From NCBI GenBank assembly GCA_964618905.1, contig CAZUDK010000001.1, positions 158,614 through 198,886 of the forward strand: DNA of 40,273 bases, written 5' to 3'. This document shows, piece after piece, positions 3,915-9,360 of this stretch. The notes below the pieces were generated by a model that made no database searches, was not told the origin of the DNA, and saw nothing but the letters and a program-made list of their open reading frames with translations. This DNA comes from an uncultured Candidatus Saccharibacteria bacterium. GTDB lineage: Bacteria > Patescibacteriota > Minisyncoccia > Phycocordibacterales > Zambryskibacteraceae. Positions within the stretch are counted from its first letter, which is position 1, and each line of letters starts with the position of its first letter. The translations under genes and the position numbers were made by a program.

Positions 3915-4370
3915 CTAATACAGCAAGAAGCCTATAACCAAGAGCACAATCACGGCCACAGCTCCCCATACCATCTTCATGTTCATGCTTGAAGATGTGA
4001 AAGAAGTGCCTGCACCAGCGGCAGCTTGCGCTTGAGAAGCGTTATCATCAGAGAGCGAGGTGGAAGAAACACCTTGAGTAAGAGCGGAAGCTAGGTTGGG
4101 AGTTTGAGTTGAAGGGTTTTCCGGAGCTGAAACTGGGTCAGGAGTCGGAGTCTGGACTGGAGACGGGTTTGGATTTGAAGTTGGAGGCATAGTCGGTGCA
4201 GGAGTTGGGGTTTCTATAGGATCCGGCTTCAAGTCTGGAATCGGAGCAGGTGTTGGGGTTGGGGTTGGAATAGGGGCCGGAGTTGGGGTTGGCTCAGGCG
4301 CAGGGGTTGGATTTAAATCAGGGTTAGTATTAGGAACTGGAGGAATATTCTCAGGTTGTGTTTGATCCAT
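3915..4370 (-). CDS. Pro/Thr-rich protein with C-terminal membrane anchor
   Basis: PTPAP/PTPTP low-complexity repeats; C-terminal VWGAVAVIVLLVIGFLLY. Confidence 0.75.
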   Translation of the reverse strand: MDQTQPENIPPVPNTNPDLNPTPAPEPTPTPAPIPTPTPTPAPIPDLKPDPIETPTPAPTMPPTSNPNPSPVQTPTPDPVSAPENPSTQTPNLASALTQGVSSTSLSDDNASQAQAAAGAGTSFTSSSMNMKMVWGAVAVIVLLVIGFLLY

Positions 4371-4453: not shown

Positions 4454-5200
4454 CTACATGCTAGTCAGTTCCTTTAATGAATCCCTCAGAATAGAAAGGT
4501 GTCCTTTTCCATAAACAATGAATATGCTTTTTTTATCCTTCCAATTCTCAACTATGACCGACTTTATATGATTGTTCCTCATTTCCGTCCCGTTAGATAT
4601 AATGGCATTAATTATCGTGTCATCTTTGCGAGGGTCAGAGATAGAATTAAGAAACTTCTCGTCTTCTAGTGACTGTTGGTCAAATAACTCATTATGTTTA
4701 TCATGTAACCAGTTAGAGTCTGGAATAAACTCGTAAATGCCTGTAAATTCAGCTTCCCTCTTTATGGAACGCTCCACAGCTTGAGAGAAAGTTGAGTCGC
4801 GCACATGCCGAAACCATGCTCCCAGATTCTGCACAATCAAAGCGTACGCTACAAGTTGAGGGTCAAATAAGGAGCATAGAAATTTTCGTTGCTCGCTACT
4901 AGATGGCTCTGCACATACCACAGGGATACTTGCTTTATTTGCTAACCAGAAGATAGCACCGGACTCTCCATATTTCTTTATGGCTTCTTCATAATTATCT
5001 GGAACATCACGCACATTTCCTTCAATGATAGCTACCCGCTCCTCACTACTGTTATTTAGAAATTCATCCCAGAATTTTTTTAAGCGACCAAACTGCACAT
5101 CATTATTGTTATTGGTATGGCGAGCACCAAAAAAATAAAGGACTTGGTGGTTTGAATTAGGACCAATTTTCAATATGGGGTTATCTTCTAGTCCATGCAT
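4454..5200 (-). CDS. TraB/GumN (Tiki-like) superfamily-like protein, 248 aa
   Basis: YFFGARH, IIEG, GE, MRN, IFIVYGKGHL motifs; start reassigned to ATG 5200, downstream of the terminator at 5221..5255. Confidence 0.55.
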   Translation of the reverse strand: MHGLEDNPILKIGPNSNHQVLYFFGARHTNNNNDVQFGRLKKFWDEFLNNSSEERVAIIEGNVRDVPDNYEEAIKKYGESGAIFWLANKASIPVVCAEPSSSEQRKFLCSLFDPQLVAYALIVQNLGAWFRHVRDSTFSQAVERSIKREAEFTGIYEFIPDSNWLHDKHNELFDQQSLEDEKFLNSISDPRKDDTIINAIISNGTEMRNNHIKSVIVENWKDKKSIFIVYGKGHLSILRDSLKELTSM

Positions 5201-5220
5201 AAGCACGCTGATATTAGCAT

Positions 5221-5255
5221 TAAAAATCGGGTAGCGCATGATTGCGCTACCCGAT
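5221..5255 (-). terminator. Intrinsic terminator ending the rSAM-peptide operon
   Basis: Perfect 13-bp stem ATCGGGTAGCGCA/TGCGCTACCCGAT, 4-nt loop, T-run on minus strand. Confidence 0.85.
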
Positions 5256-5270
5256 CCAGCAGACTCCGTC

Positions 5271-5471
5271 CTACTCGTCGCGTGAGTCCGAGTAGTCCTG
5301 GTAGTCGTCGTAGGGGCTGTCCACATAGACAGAGTCGCTGTAGTCATCGTAGCCATCCACGCGACCACGCCACTCACCCCGCACCTCCCTCGTTGGAGGA
5401 GGAAGGGTGTCCACCCTGTCGAAGGCTGCCTCCAGGGCTATCCCACCCTTGGGTACCTCCACTTCTTGCAT
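5271..5471 (-). CDS. Putative RiPP precursor peptide with six Y-x-D motifs
   Basis: Starts 3 nt after rSAM stop with SD AAGGAG; C-terminal YDD-YSD-SV-YVD-SP-YDD-YQD-YSD-SRDE. Confidence 0.8.
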   Translation of the reverse strand: MQEVEVPKGGIALEAAFDRVDTLPPPTREVRGEWRGRVDGYDDYSDSVYVDSPYDDYQDYSDSRDE

Positions 5472-5474
5472 GAC

Positions 5475-6614
5475 CTACTCCTTTCCTTTGAAAGTGAGTG
5501 TGGCTAGGCTGCCGGGAACACCCGGCGAAAACGTAGTCGGAGTCGCCACACTGTTCATTACTCCGATACGTTCAGAAAGATAACCATAGAACGCCAAGCG
5601 ACTGCCACAATATGCATAGTGAGGCGATGTATCACCATCGTTTATCCGATGGGCAACACATCCATTGTGGCAGAAATTTTTCATTGAACAGACCTCGCAC
5701 TTACTTGGCACCCACAAGGTCTGAGAGGTAAAAGCCTGATGTTCGTGAGATTCAAGAACTTCAGCAAAAGATGAGACAGACACTACATTGCCGAAACATG
5801 CTGATCTGCCCAGTCTTTCACACGGATAAATCATTCCGTCATGGTCAACCAGCATCCAACTACTGCATGACCCTCGGAAAGTACACGACCGATCCGTCCG
5901 ACCACGAGTCCATGCAATCATGCTGTCCAGCTCTCGCACCTTCACATCCGGTCTATCAAGCTGGACCCACTCCTCAAAAATATCTTTAAGAAATTGGGTC
6001 CACGCCTCATCGCTGACAGCGAACGGATCTTGGCGTAAATCGCTCGCTACGTTGTAGAACGCATTGAATGCTATGCTAGTGAACCCTGACTCTACCAACC
6101 CTCTGAGCATCTCCGCCCCCAAGTGGGCATTCCGCTTCGTCACAACACATATGACCGGCGGGAAAATGCCTGCTTCTCTTAAGGTCAAAACCCCTCTGAT
6201 GGCCTTCGCATAGGTACCACGGCCAGAGAGATTTATACGGTCAGCATCGTGGGTCTGAGAGGTCCCATCGATGCTTACACCAACCTTGAAACCACACTGG
6301 CTGAAAAAATCTGCCCACTCTCTGTCTATGAGAGTGGCGTTTGTTTGAATGGTATTGGTCCACTTTTTTCCTGGATGATCTCCTTGAAGTCGGATGACCT
6401 CCTTGAAGAAATCGAGTCCAGCAAGCGTGGGTTCACCACCCAACCAATGTATGCGCTGAGAGCTTTGTGGTAAGCAGGCAAGCGAACTTATGAGTGAACG
6501 CAGTGTTTCTTGCGACATTACCCTCTTGCCACCCTGGTCGAAATCTCTATCGCGGCAATAGGTGCATCGGAGATTGCAGAAATCCCCAACAATCTTCGCT
6601 TGAATAGCGGGCAT
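5475..6614 (-). CDS. Radical SAM/SPASM peptide maturase (anSME-like)
   Basis: CNLRCTYC, GGEP, IQTNA, SIDG; SPASM cysteines CTFRGSC...YPC...CEVC...CHNGC...YC; SD GGAGG. Confidence 0.92.
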   Translation of the reverse strand: MPAIQAKIVGDFCNLRCTYCRDRDFDQGGKRVMSQETLRSLISSLACLPQSSQRIHWLGGEPTLAGLDFFKEVIRLQGDHPGKKWTNTIQTNATLIDREWADFFSQCGFKVGVSIDGTSQTHDADRINLSGRGTYAKAIRGVLTLREAGIFPPVICVVTKRNAHLGAEMLRGLVESGFTSIAFNAFYNVASDLRQDPFAVSDEAWTQFLKDIFEEWVQLDRPDVKVRELDSMIAWTRGRTDRSCTFRGSCSSWMLVDHDGMIYPCERLGRSACFGNVVSVSSFAEVLESHEHQAFTSQTLWVPSKCEVCSMKNFCHNGCVAHRINDGDTSPHYAYCGSRLAFYGYLSERIGVMNSVATPTTFSPGVPGSLATLTFKGKE

Positions 6615-6699
6615 TTCTGCCTCCGTTAGTCAAAGAACCCCTCGCTATCCTCTCAAGCCTAGGTGCCTGAGTTCGAGCGAATTCGTTTTCTGTCCCCAC

Positions 6700-6727
6700 T
6701 TTATCACACTTTTGCGAAGATGTACAG
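6700..6727 (-). promoter_or_regulatory. Promoter-like element, copy 2
   Basis: TGTACA-N17-TAAAGT with extended -10 TGn; matches 3882..3909. Confidence 0.7.
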
Positions 6728-6761: not shown

Positions 6762-7559
6762 ATGACCACTATTATCTCCTGGAACGTCAACGGCATACGA
6801 GCAGTACATAAAAAAGGCTTATTTGTGCCTTTTATAGAAAAATACAAGCCTGACATCCTACTTTTGCAAGAAACTAAAGCTGCAGAGCACCAATCCGAAG
6901 TAGATTTGCCGGATTATGAGGAATACTGGAACTCAGCAGAAAGAAAAGGATACAGTGGTACAGCCATATTCACCAAAGAGAAGCCCATCAAAATCATAAA
7001 TGGTCTACCAGAGAATATTTGCAAAAAATATGGATTAAACACTGATGATTATGGTGATCCAACTACCGAAGGAAGGGTTATAGCCGCAGAATATAAAGAT
7101 TTTTACGTAGTAAGCGTATACACTCCAAACGCCAAGGATAACCTGGGTCGCCTGACCTTGCGGCACAAGCATTGGGATCCGGCCTTTTTGTTCTACATGA
7201 AACAGCTAGAAAAAGAAAAACCCGTTATATTTGGCGGAGATCTGAATGTCGCTCACACTCCAGACGATTTGGCTAATCCCAAGCAAAATGAAGGTAAAAA
7301 GGGTTTTACAGAAGAAGAGAGAGAAGGCATAGATAAGATAATCAAATCTGGCTTTGTAGACACTTTCCGCATGTTCACTAAAGGCAATGGACACTATAGC
7401 TGGTGGAGTCACTTTGCAAATTCCAGAGCCAGGAATGTAGGTTGGAGAATAGATTATATTTTTGTCTCCCCTACCCTGAAATCTAAAGTAAAGAGTGCCA
7501 AAATATTAGCAGAGGTAATGGGTTCAGATCACTGCCCTGTTGAGATTGAGCTAAAATAG
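6762..7559 (+). CDS. xth: Exodeoxyribonuclease III / AP endonuclease
   Basis: SWNVNG, LQETK, GYSG, GDLNVAH, GWRIDY, GSDHCP. Confidence 0.97.
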   Translation: MTTIISWNVNGIRAVHKKGLFVPFIEKYKPDILLLQETKAAEHQSEVDLPDYEEYWNSAERKGYSGTAIFTKEKPIKIINGLPENICKKYGLNTDDYGDPTTEGRVIAAEYKDFYVVSVYTPNAKDNLGRLTLRHKHWDPAFLFYMKQLEKEKPVIFGGDLNVAHTPDDLANPKQNEGKKGFTEEEREGIDKIIKSGFVDTFRMFTKGNGHYSWWSHFANSRARNVGWRIDYIFVSPTLKSKVKSAKILAEVMGSDHCPVEIELK

Positions 7560-7577: not shown

Positions 7578-7641
7578 AAATAAAGGACAAAAAATAATTT
7601 AGGTTATCCACAGATTTTAATAGTAAATTTGTCCTTTATTT
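7578..7641. promoter_or_regulatory. DnaA box enclosed by a 14-bp inverted repeat
   Basis: AAATAAAGGACAAA (7578-7591) / TTTGTCCTTTATTT (7628-7641); TTATCCACA at 7604-7612. Confidence 0.6.
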
Positions 7642-7927
7642 ATTATACTTCTAGCAGACGCTTGAAGGACGTCTTTCAACTCTCCCACTAGAAAGTCGTA
7701 CTCTCAGGCATAAGTTCGCGTGGTAAATAAGGGAACAGGCCAGCTGCCCGAGTATTAATTCAGGCAGGTTCCTGACCGGAAGACATTCTGGTTTCAGGCT
7801 TTGGGCAAGGATAATCAGGTCCCCAATCTTCATTTTTTTGACCTCTCGTGTCCACAAGTGCCCTCGTCTAGTTCTCTGGAATGTTCTTTCAGAACAATCG
7901 CTTCCCTGCCCTCCGGGCGGAGCAAGC

Positions 7928-7958
7928 AACCGCCTCAATCGCCTTGGGGCGGTTTTTT
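7928..7958 (+). terminator. Intrinsic terminator
   Basis: AACCGCCTCAA-tcgcc-TTGGGGCGGTT followed by T-run. Confidence 0.7.
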
Positions 7959-8094
7959 ATTGGAAAATTAAGAGGACAAGGGCTTATTGTAAGGTTTTTG
8001 TCTTTCATTCGTTTATTTAAAAACACATACCCCCTAAAACCCCTGCTATAAAATCCTTTGGTGTAGCCCTGAATACACAATAAATTGTACAAAC

Positions 8095-8124
8095 TGTGGA
8101 TAATTGTGTGGAAAGTGTGCATAA
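8095..8124. promoter_or_regulatory. Three tandem DnaA-box-like 9-mers
   Basis: TGTGGATAA (8095), TGTGGAAAG (8107), TGTGCATAA (8116). Confidence 0.65.
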
Positions 8125-8198
8125 AAGACATCCTATAATGTACTTGAGGCTTATTTTGTCTTTACTTAGCCAATATTGGACACGAATTTAGCCTTAAA

Positions 8199-8238
8199 TA
8201 TTTCACGTGAAACTATATATTAGGTTGCACATGTAACT
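8199..8238. promoter_or_regulatory. Two parS-like palindromes
   Basis: TATTTCACGTGAAACT (8199-8214, 14/16 to TGTTTCACGTGAAACA) and degenerate GGTTGCACATGTAACT (8223-8238). Confidence 0.6.
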
Positions 8239-8262
8239 ATCTCGTTGAAATAGCCTTATTTA

Positions 8263-8772
8263 ATGGAAAAAAGAGATAACAGAACAGAAAAGCGTAAAAT
8301 AGGGGACATAGGAGAGAATATTGCTTGTGATTTCCTTAAGAAAAGAGGTTTTGAGATATTAGACAGAAATTATCTCCGTAAGTGGGGAGAGATAGACATA
8401 ATTGCAAGAAAAGGTGGTGTTATAAGGTTTTTAGAGGTAAAAAGCGCTAGATCTAGCGCTTTTTTATATAATGAAGTTTCTCGTGGAACCCAAATAGGGG
8501 ACAAAAATACAAATAAAAATAGGTATTTAGGTGGTTCACATGCAACCCCGATACCAGAGCAAAGCTCGCTACGGGGCAAGCATTTTGATAGGGGATACAG
8601 GCCGGAGGACAATATGCACCCCTGGAAAGTTAAGAGGCTAATGAGAGCCATTCAGACATACCTTATTGAAAAGGACATAAATCTGGACTGGCAGTTGGAT
8701 TTGGTAACTGTAAGGATAGATATGAAAAGCCGCATGGCTAGAGTGGAGATACTGGAAAATATAATTATTTAG
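8263..8772 (+). CDS. yraN: YraN/UPF0102 family endonuclease-fold protein with internal insertion
   Basis: GDIGENIA, RNY...GEIDIIA, FLEVK; about 45-aa extra segment after EVKS. Confidence 0.88.
   Translation: MEKRDNRTEKRKIGDIGENIACDFLKKRGFEILDRNYLRKWGEIDIIARKGGVIRFLEVKSARSSAFLYNEVSRGTQIGDKNTNKNRYLGGSHATPIPEQSSLRGKHFDRGYRPEDNMHPWKVKRLMRAIQTYLIEKDINLDWQLDLVTVRIDMKSRMARVEILENIII
8545..8577. repeat. GC-rich palindromic element in frame within yraN
   Basis: ACCCCG-ATACCA-GAGC-AAA-GCTC-GCTA-CGGGGC; 33 nt in an otherwise AT-rich gene. Confidence 0.5.
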
Positions 8773-8779
8773 CTTGAAT

Positions 8780-8853
8780 TGGTGCGGGATGGGAGAATCG
8801 AACTCCCGACCACAGTTTGGAAAACTGTTGTTTTGCCACTAAACTAATCCCGC
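8780..8853 (-). tRNA. tRNA-Gly(TCC)
   Basis: Cloverleaf; anticodon arm ACAGT-TT-TCC-AA-ACTGT; GTTCGA; CCA encoded. Confidence 0.95.
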
Positions 8854-8873
8854 ATTGTCTGAATCTAAACCTT

Positions 8874-8944
8874 TCGGGCTGCTGGGAATCGAACCCAGAC
8901 CGTACGCTCCCAAAGCGTATATACTACCACTATACTACAGCCCG
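8874..8944 (-). tRNA. tRNA-Pro(TGG)
   Basis: Anticodon arm TACGC-TT-TGG-GA-GCGTA; GGTTCGATTCC; no encoded CCA. Confidence 0.95.
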
Positions 8945-9060
8945 TAGTGAGGAAAAATATCAAAATTTATTTTGATATTCATTCCGAGCGCACGGGCTGT
9001 CTTTATCAAGACGGCCCGTAGTGAGACCTAACACCTTAAACCTGCGGTTTCAAGAGTGTT

Positions 9061-9131
9061 TCGGAGTGCCGGGAATCGAACCCGGGTCTCACGAACCCGA
9101 ATCGTGAATACTGCCTCTGTAATACACTCCG
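9061..9131 (-). tRNA. tRNA-Pro(CGG)
   Basis: Anticodon arm CACGA-TT-CGG-GT-TCGTG; no encoded CCA. Confidence 0.93.
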
Positions 9132-9204
9132 GGTGCGGCCAGGGGTAATCGAAACCCCGCCTCGTCCTTGGCAAGGACGCGTCCTACCACTAAACCATGG
9201 CCGC
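9132..9204 (-). tRNA. tRNA-Gly(GCC)
   Basis: Anticodon arm CGTCC-TT-GCC-AA-GGACG; ends ...GCA-CC directly abutting tRNA-Pro(CGG). Confidence 0.93.
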
Positions 9205-9285
9205 GATGAAAGAGATGATATCTTATTTAAAGAAAAAAATCGAGTTTTGATGTAGGATAGCTATGTTGCACTTTTATCAAAGATT

Positions 9286-9360
9286 GCTCCCGTGGTGAAA
9301 TGGATATCATGACTGACTTCGGATCAGTTGTTGTGGGTTCGAGTCCTGCCGGGAGCACCA
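9286..9360 (+). tRNA. tRNA-Arg(TCG)
   Basis: Acceptor GCTCCCG/CGGGAGC; anticodon arm ACTGA-CT-TCG-GA-TCAGT; CCA encoded. Confidence 0.93.

Follow-up and report, generated by a model that had tools for sequence, protein, structure and literature searches.

A 40,273-nt stretch of DNA (hereafter the window; C1:158614-198886 of its genome) from a soil bacterium of the candidate phyla radiation (CPR) carries on its minus strand three consecutive genes, encoding a radical S-adenosylmethionine (rSAM)/SPASM enzyme, a short acidic peptide built on Tyr-x-Asp units and a TraB/Tiki-like hydrolase (Table 1). Most likely, as far as the sequence can tell, these genes form a cassette whose product is a RiPP, a peptide made on the ribosome and modified after translation. 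The original prediction for this DNA had described a two-gene operon of the enzyme and the peptide, overlooking the third gene, which is present in 13 of 14 closely related loci.

Table 1. Features of the three-gene cassette, in positions of the window
Feature	Position	Strand	Basis or description
rSAM/SPASM peptide maturase gene, anSME-like	5475-6614	minus	open reading frame, 379 aa
Shine-Dalgarno sequence GGAGG	6620-6624	minus	5 nt ahead of the rSAM ATG; direct sequence reading
Precursor peptide gene, 66 aa + stop	5271-5471	minus	open reading frame; homologues at the same place in other loci
GGAG ribosome-binding site for the peptide	5478-5481	minus	within the end of the rSAM gene; direct sequence reading
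Leader part, residues 1-40, motif ALEAAFDRV	5352-5471	minus	alignment of family peptides
Core part, residues 41-66, six Tyr-x-Asp, strongly acidic	5274-5351	minus	YDD YSD S V YVD S P YDD YQD YSD SRDE
Intrinsic terminator or attenuator	5222-5255	minus	13-bp perfect stem (5226-5255), 4-nt loop, U-run
TraB/PrgY/GumN (TIKI-superfamily) hydrolase gene, 248 aa	4454-5200	minus	synteny, invariant residues, fold

The open reading frame (ORF) of the enzyme contains the Pfam domains Radical_SAM PF04055 (68.5 bits, E 1e-18) and SPASM PF13186 (28.8 bits, E 1.6e-6), both above their cut-offs, and its TAG stop (5475-5477) is followed by GTC and then by the ATG of the peptide gene. This 3-nt gap, the ribosome-binding site within the end of the rSAM gene and the GGAGG ahead of its start bear out the original prediction of a Shine-Dalgarno-led maturase gene tightly coupled to a 66-aa peptide gene downstream. 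The 13-bp terminator that it had proposed is confirmed as well. The inverted repeat at 5226-5255 stands directly after the peptide stop and is followed by UUUU-AAU; RNAfold gives it −27.8 kcal/mol (z = −5.1), and none of 200 shuffles folds equally well. A consensus terminator scan of the window did not list this hairpin. In all 11 other testable loci, too, a GC-rich hairpin followed by a U-run separates the precursor gene from the hydrolase gene; the stem sequences vary. In a clade of 45-49% identity the hairpin tops are near-identical; L005, L085, L087 and L088 have GUUUGCAAAAAC, whereas L004, L006 and L084 have variants of it, and the stems beneath them differ. The hairpin of the window ends 25 nt before the start of the hydrolase gene and, because it lies just ahead of it, the hydrolase is probably expressed by read-through, below the level of the enzyme and the precursor.

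Alignment with 19 homologues places the hydrolase start at position 5200 (MHGLEDN). The ORF track gives instead a 307-aa ORF (4454-5377) that overlaps the peptide gene, a false 5' extension that had been suspected from the outset and through which the precursor is hidden here from gene callers. The promoter claimed ahead of the rSAM gene fared less well: a sigma-70 scan of the upstream minus strand found no site, and the best candidate by eye is a weak TGTACA-17 nt-TAAAGT, preceded by TG (6698-6726). Four DNA sequencing runs from one soil-metagenome study contain the stretch, one of them possibly its source, and no RNA sequencing run containing it was found.

A protein search with the enzyme returned 1042 relatives, including 43 consecutive rows with 60-80% identity and around 46 with 42-52%; where named, their hosts are Parcubacteria-type CPR bacteria. 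From genome and metagenome collections we fetched 160 loci (labels L...), and took as close the 17 places with an rSAM at least 42% identical, that is, the window and 16 loci. Three were left out, since L003 and L089 end at the rSAM stop and L111 is an rSAM fragment (residues 41-186) with no peptide. In all 14 remaining loci, with downstream DNA and rSAMs 45-75% identical, a related peptide is encoded directly after the rSAM stop, as it also is in L013, whose rSAM is 35% identical. The check suggested with the original prediction, to look for YxD peptides beside homologues, thus came out in its favor: the enzyme and the small ORF are a conserved maturase/precursor pair, and the constant element of the core is aromatic-x-Asp. 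The hydrolase gene follows the peptide in 13 of the 14 loci, although in L088 the contig ends within it. In L086, an ORF of 70 aa (4016-4228), Cys-rich and with CxxCxG-type repeats, lies ~250 nt downstream of the peptide gene.

Flanking genes vary by locus, and nothing beyond the cassette is conserved. Just upstream of it, L004 has an M16 (insulinase-type) peptidase gene (1540-2862), preceded by an ORF of similar size (108-1394), and L002 an rve-type integrase gene (L002:2001-2891). Close homologues of the enzyme were absent from 400 other sampled genomes of the class, of which 25 contain an rSAM resembling anaerobic sulfatase-maturating enzymes (anSMEs; E 1e-40 or better), all scoring at most 334 bits compared with 638 for the enzyme against itself. 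The GC content of the cassette, 47.1%, is within the spread of the genome (mean 43.4%, standard deviation 2.5; 5.8% of genome windows are equally high), and we therefore dropped the claim of a foreign compositional island. An empty-site comparison was uninformative, because the only close exonuclease III neighbor (G021, 69% identical) is at a contig end.

The window peptide reads MQEVEVPKGGIALEAAFDRVDTLPPPTREVRGEWRGRVDG-YDDYSDSVYVDSPYDDYQDYSDSRDE, with a tail ending in GYDDYSDSVYVDSPYDDYQDYSDSRDE, and contains exactly the six motifs first reported for it (YDD, YSD, YVD, YDD, YQD and YSD). Every one of its six Tyr has Asp at position +2, as do six of the seven aromatic residues of the tail, and six Y-x-D units in the tail are reached by 0.03% of composition-preserving shuffles (p = 0.0003). 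An alignment of family peptides revealed the leader motif ALxGAFxR[IV], with the wider form A-[LV]-x-[GAED]-A-[FL]-x-R-[IV], in which A12, A16 and R19 are invariant. The cores are 21-54% identical to one another, and their most conserved unit is Y-x-D-[C/A/S]-P. Over 15 peptides, Asp occupies +2 after 55 of 65 core aromatics, and the +2 residue is aromatic in four of the 65 cases.

When a profile built from these 15 peptides was run against 1.84 billion representative proteins, 56 matched at E 1e-3 or better; they are 47-86 aa long, and eight are training sequences. Fifty of the 56 carry the strict leader motif; in the whole set, 205 of the 249 aromatics in the cores have Asp at +2, and each core has 1-8 motifs; the median core net charge is −8; and 23 peptides have a Cys in a central Y-x-D-C-P motif. 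The window peptide contains no Cys, and the core of L002 contains no Cys, Ser or Thr. No family was matched in Pfam by the window peptide, nor in NCBIfam by any of the 15 peptides, and a protein atlas search with the window peptide gave no usable match. Very probably, the peptide is the substrate of the enzyme, and the repeated Y-x-D unit is probably where the modification takes place.

The same frame recurs beyond the close loci. Where rSAMs are 33-38% identical to the window enzyme, mostly in CPR genomes, the peptide encoded after the rSAM gene has a similar leader. In one group (L016, L017, L092-L094, L096, L100-L103, L107, L109, L114, L117-L119, L131 and L165-L167) the cores are WxD, WxN or WxQ repeats, e.g. 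...WQQWGDWDNGHADS or ...GWDDQWDHWDQLG.... Another rSAM clade (L022, L034, L047, L132, L149, L152, L160, L173-L175, L177 and L178) has basic peptides ending ...PWDKAWEKGPWDKGHWANRK, with Trp-x-Lys (WDK/WEK repeats) and Trp-x-Asn units in a three-residue register. The aromatic residue and the +2 frame are constant across clades, and the residue at +2 changes by clade. It is mainly this persistence of the frame, which fits the triceptide definition Omega1-X2-X3 as excerpted from PMC11499958, that favors a three-residue cross-link.

Judged by its sequence, the enzyme is an anSME-like SPASM protein outside every named family. CNLRCTYC at residues 13-20 provides the CX3CX2C motif (C13/C17/C20), eight C-terminal Cys are conserved, and C13/C17/C20, C250, C265, C306, C309, C315, C319 and C336 are invariant across 23 sequences. 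The best NCBIfam match is anSME TIGR03942, at 258.1 bits below the cut-off of 349.45, followed by DynA (184 vs 450), DarW (149 vs 650), PapB NF047865 (143 vs 340) and DarE (128 vs 650). The original prediction had likened the enzyme to the triceptide class of XyeB, GrrM and FxsB, and membership in these families is at odds with scores of 95-114 bits against cut-offs of 310-450 (XyeB TIGR04496, 95 vs 450; GrrM/OscB TIGR04261, 114 vs 310; FxsB TIGR04269, 96 vs 370); nearest is anSME, then DynA. YhhB NF041707 (106 vs 445) and AmcB NF041718 (127 vs 425) are also below cut-off, 10 further CPR homologues are likewise under all cut-offs, and none of the 11 CPR enzymes reaches that of anSME. Sequence matches in the PDB include anSME from Clostridium perfringens (4k36; E 3.5e-45, 28% identity) and the sactisynthase CteB (61.8 bits). 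In Foldseek, the AlphaFold model of the enzyme (pLDDT 75) superposes on anSME with template modeling (TM) scores of 0.79-0.80 (4k39, 0.79) and on ChlB 9gm3 with 0.76. The placement of the enzyme relative to the families of enzymes that make three-residue cyclophanes (3-CyFEs) is based on hidden Markov model and PDB scores, in place of a tree.

The resemblance to anSMEs (TIGR03942; PDB 4k36-4k39) extends to equal length, the three-cluster Cys pattern and the lack of an N-terminal recognition domain, and C. perfringens anSME is the best match in the PDB. Nevertheless, it is extremely improbable that this is a true anaerobic sulfatase-maturating enzyme beside an incidental small ORF. No match to the sulfatase domain PF00884 was found in the window genome, which is 94% complete, using a search that was positive in 10 of 14 control genomes, and on this the sulfatase-maturase reading fails. 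Moreover, the small ORF keeps both its sequence and its place across 14 of 14 loci, the substrate would be a dedicated small peptide, and family members with cores free of Cys and Ser exist. One outcome that the original prediction had named against itself was homologues beside sulfatases with no conserved peptide; what was found speaks in its favor.

The cassette would most probably work like a triceptide system, judging from its layout and motifs, while being a member of no defined one. As in the systems of XyeB, GrrM/OscB, FxsB, YhhB, HaaB, HtkB, ChlB and MicB, an rSAM/SPASM maturase without a separate recognition domain adjoins a short precursor, and the core repeats aromatic-X-X3 with an X3 whose identity depends on the clade. 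The enzyme model also superposes on ChlB, as noted above. Unlike in those systems, the enzyme is under all curated cut-offs, X3 is Asp, the enzyme gene comes before that of the precursor, the cassette is in a CPR bacterium and the partner hydrolase is of the TIKI/TraB type. Tyr triceptide motifs that are known include YDR (ChlB) and YSK (MicB) (PMC11499958, PMC12912966). DarE is nearest to anSME by sequence, yet forms cyclophanes, according to part of PMC10288494. For the window cassette, the chances that the bond is a cyclophane between Tyr and the Asp beta-carbon appear about even from the sequence pattern.

Alternatively, the same enzyme and substrate could carry out a different radical reaction on the aromatic-x-Asp units, which we consider unlikely but far from negligible. 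The reaction might form an aryl-O-C ether as in daropeptides, oxidize or decarboxylate Asp (e.g. to aminomalonate or to an Asp altered at the beta position), modify Tyr with no ring closed or, in Cys-bearing members, make a ranthipeptide Cys-Asp thioether. The best sub-threshold families do span several chemistries (anSME 258, DynA 184, DarW 149, PapB 143 and DarE 128 bits), 23 of the 56 family peptides have the Cys in Y-x-D-C-P, and Ma et al. reportedly observed, in 2021, that a 3-CyFE gave formylglycine and aminomalonate in vitro. However, conservation of the aromatic and the +2 residue is the triceptide register, and it is kept as the +2 residue changes between clades. DarE, DarW and DynA, the second-best family matches, are anSME-like too and put cross-links on the aromatic side chains of short cores, but the window enzyme is far under their cut-offs of 450-650; the Omega-x-Omega register of daropeptides, with its aromatic +2, is rare in cores that have Asp there in 55 of 65 cases (4/65). 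The PapB ranthipeptide family differs in score (143 vs 340 bits) and in that the window peptide offers no Cys for Cys-Asp thioethers. Since this peptide lacks Cys and the L002 core lacks Cys, Ser and Thr, neither a thioether nor Ser/Cys oxidation can be the family-wide reaction.

The product of the third gene is small, soluble and, by inspection of its sequence, without signal peptide or membrane segment, and hence cytoplasmic by sequence. Residues G25, H28, E60, R208, G231 and H234 are invariant in 20 family members, with E79 in at least 90%, which gives the GxxH ... E ... R ... GxxH pattern of the TIKI/TraB/PrgY/GumN superfamily; the lack of a membrane part and the small size set the protein apart from that superfamily. 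The TIKI superfamily, whose members include ChaN, Ere, Bcr135-type proteins and HopBA1, hydrolyzes ester and peptide bonds at a 2His/2Glu site, as described in the portion of PMC6254334 consulted. The His and Glu residues of the family fit this published motif, the equivalence of positions being read from the pattern and not from structural superposition. Pfam PF01963 (TraB_PrgY_gumN) is matched by 10 of the 20 members (best E 8.6e-6). In VIA-align, the AlphaFold2 model (pLDDT 93) matched a Tetrahymena complex IV subunit (8bqs_DQ; Z 9.0, 178 aligned), ChaN (2g5g; Z 7.6, 162 aligned, root-mean-square deviation 5.4), EreC (6xcq; Z 6.7) and HopBA1 (5t09; Z 5.9), with Bcr135-type proteins also among the better rows. 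Foldseek found no PDB structure with an E value of 1e-3 or better, EreC ranking second, and a PDB sequence profile search returned a chance match only. The invariant His/Glu residues, the PF01963 matches in the family and the fold matches to TIKI members together suggest an active TIKI/TraB-type hydrolase.

All 45 hydrolase homologues found are 'hypothetical' or unnamed, and the nearest clusters in the protein atlas are 'hypothetical protein' (Minisyncoccota) and DUF5694. Relatives occur in 10 of the 400 other sampled class genomes; in the class-wide sample, the four matches of at least 230 bits (one in the window genome, G000, one in G360 and two in G371) all adjoin an rSAM gene. One relative (G170:C1:47271-48063, L204) is split into two matches by a single in-frame TGA, possibly because it is a pseudogene or because it carries a frameshift or a recoded stop. 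TraB/PrgY proteins have been linked to peptide pheromones. Tentatively, and with somewhat less than even odds, we propose from these sequence features that the third protein may be a leader peptidase or trimming enzyme. A predicted complex between it and the precursor reached a median score of 0.30 against a mark of 0.32, in a run without controls that is no evidence either way. A 2023 review of RiPP leader proteases mentions neither TraB nor Tiki (PMC10885120). The original statement that the operon has no transporter or peptidase therefore stands for the transporter; for the peptidase it had passed over this candidate.

Under the reading we favor, the enzyme would bind the conserved ALxGAFxR[IV] leader of the 66-aa precursor and direct 5'-deoxyadenosyl radical chemistry at the repeated aromatic-x-Asp units of the acidic core. 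Each motif would acquire one three-residue ring by a triceptide-type C-C bond from the Tyr ring to the Asp beta-carbon, with up to six rings and −2 Da for each. The rSAM and the precursor would be translated as a coupled pair, only read-through transcripts would pass the hairpin to reach the third gene, and the His/Glu hydrolase of the TIKI/TraB/PrgY superfamily would cut off the leader or otherwise trim the modified peptide. We estimate at roughly 60% the probability of this reading, in which the three genes are a self-contained RiPP cassette; the cassette itself we judge to be real and conserved, and its family to be uncurated.

Several observations weigh against this reading. The enzyme is below every curated triceptide cut-off in NCBIfam, its sequence score against anSME (157.6 bits) is about three times that against ChlB (51 bits), and a triceptide with Asp at X3 was not found described in the literature examined. 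A comparison of enzyme clades with core charge gave 27 complementary and 23 anti-complementary positions, with full swaps at three versus none; charge complementarity is therefore not used as support, and the swaps (R54, K225 and H322) are leads only. The window's own third protein has no PF01963 match, its sole Pfam match being DUF5694 (E 0.0057, sub-cut-off), and its fold matches are middling (VIA-align Z 5.9-9.0). One close locus, L086, has no hydrolase, and eight weaker hydrolase relatives (at most 214 bits) have no rSAM or recognizable precursor within 1.5 kb, indicating that the link between hydrolase and rSAM is limited to the close subfamily. No exporter is found in the cassette or conserved in the flanks. 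Finally, the cassette enzyme, present as a single copy, is the only PF04055 match in the window genome, and no match was found there for the MetK C-domain (SAM synthetase), SufBD, NifU_N/IscU, flavodoxin or Fer4, each of these families being positive in 10-14 of 14 control genomes.

The lone rSAM and the unmatched cofactor families might mean that the cassette, a passenger that either arrived recently or is decaying, is non-functional since its host cannot supply a three-cluster rSAM enzyme. The flanks that vary by locus and the integrase gene beside the L002 cassette would agree with such an origin, which we nonetheless find quite improbable: all three ORFs are intact; the cluster ligands, the hydrolase His/Glu, both ribosome-binding sites and the hairpin are retained; and the GC content is ordinary for the genome. 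The genome, 535 kb in 10 contigs and without a sulfatase, agrees with the minimal CPR-type host originally predicted. It contains a cysteine-desulfurase-like gene (C4:32719-33834, with a 172-aa ORF adjoining), about 6% of it is missing and divergent genes may escape Pfam models. Three explanations of the cofactor gap remain open: genes that are divergent or in the missing 6%, SAM and reducing power supplied by the host, or an idle cassette.

The product could also be an intracellular cofactor or metal-binding peptide for the cell's own use, made from Tyr and an acidic residue in the manner of pyrroloquinoline quinone (PQQ) or mycofactocin. Consistent with this, no transporter is found in the cassette or conserved in the flanks, the third protein appears cytoplasmic, and the median core charge is −8. 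However, the precursors of PQQ and mycofactocin have a fixed single site, whereas the cores here have 1-8 motifs and are 21-54% identical. The sparse distribution, with no close homologue in 400 other class genomes (best 334 vs 638 bits), and the lack of a partner oxidoreductase conserved nearby likewise make an intracellular role improbable.

Part of this gene content has been noted before. In CPR graspetide 'branch 2' loci, Makarova et al. 2022 noted genes for a SPASM rSAM and a Tiki/TraB-family peptidase; precursors were not found in most such loci, and the authors suggested that small ORFs had been missed by gene callers (PMC8939145, in the part consulted). Branch 2 differs in that an ATP-grasp ligase together with a 'cluster 23' protein defines its loci, and individual loci may overlap. 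No ATP-grasp was found among 20 flanking ORFs in nine cassette loci or among the window neighbors, and the window genome has only a distant, sub-threshold ATP-grasp_4 match (18.7 bits), 114 kb away. The literature examined on triceptide, cyclophane and rSAM RiPPs for CPR, and on TraB/Tiki with RiPPs, does not describe the family, although the 2022 triceptide network (10.1021/jacs.2c00521) could include these enzymes.

Other features of the window lie around the cassette. A minus-strand ORF of 151 aa (3915-4370), rich in Pro and Thr and with a hydrophobic C-terminal tail, has no Pfam match and is not conserved beside the cassette elsewhere. On the other side, an exonuclease III gene (6762-7559) and a UPF0102 gene (8263-8772, plus strand) flank ~660 bases (7600-8260) without an ORF of at least 100 aa and without an Rfam family at gathering score. 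The UPF0102 match spans profile positions 1-47 of 80 in a 169-aa ORF, so that the domain is possibly interrupted or extended. At 8780-9360, at a distance of ~2 kb from the cassette, there is a cluster of five tRNA genes (Gly-tcc, Pro-tgg, Pro-cgg, Gly-gcc and Arg-tcg).

CPR bacteria are credited with almost no secondary metabolism, and a peptide pathway of three genes, compact, conserved and mobile, in a genome of 535 kb would provide an easily clonable handle on their products. RiPP chemistry would gain a precursor family with 56 representatives, the aromatic-x-Asp motif and a candidate new class of leader peptidases, together with an enzyme clade that sits between anSME and the cyclophane synthases. 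If the proposed role of the third gene is true, RiPP maturation would involve TIKI/TraB/PrgY, a superfamily of proteases that is not known to take part in it and is otherwise connected with peptide signaling. A lone rSAM enzyme without a recognizable SAM synthetase or Fe-S scaffold raises the question of cofactor supply by the host, and the polyanionic product might be a signal, a metal binder or a weapon at the symbiont-host interface. More speculatively, and as a whole rather unlikely, Patescibacteria may possess a new, lineage-wide class of leader-guided rSAM peptides in which an aromatic ring is welded to the residue at +2. Asp at +2 would be a first for the window clade's type of enzyme, and the product would be a polyanionic chain in which Tyr-Asp cyclophanes number up to six or more and whose leader is cut by a TIKI/TraB/PrgY-type hydrolase, all in a 0.5-Mb symbiont; SAM, and perhaps Fe-S clusters or electrons, would come from the host, and the peptide would act as a host-dependent signal or weapon where symbiont and host meet.

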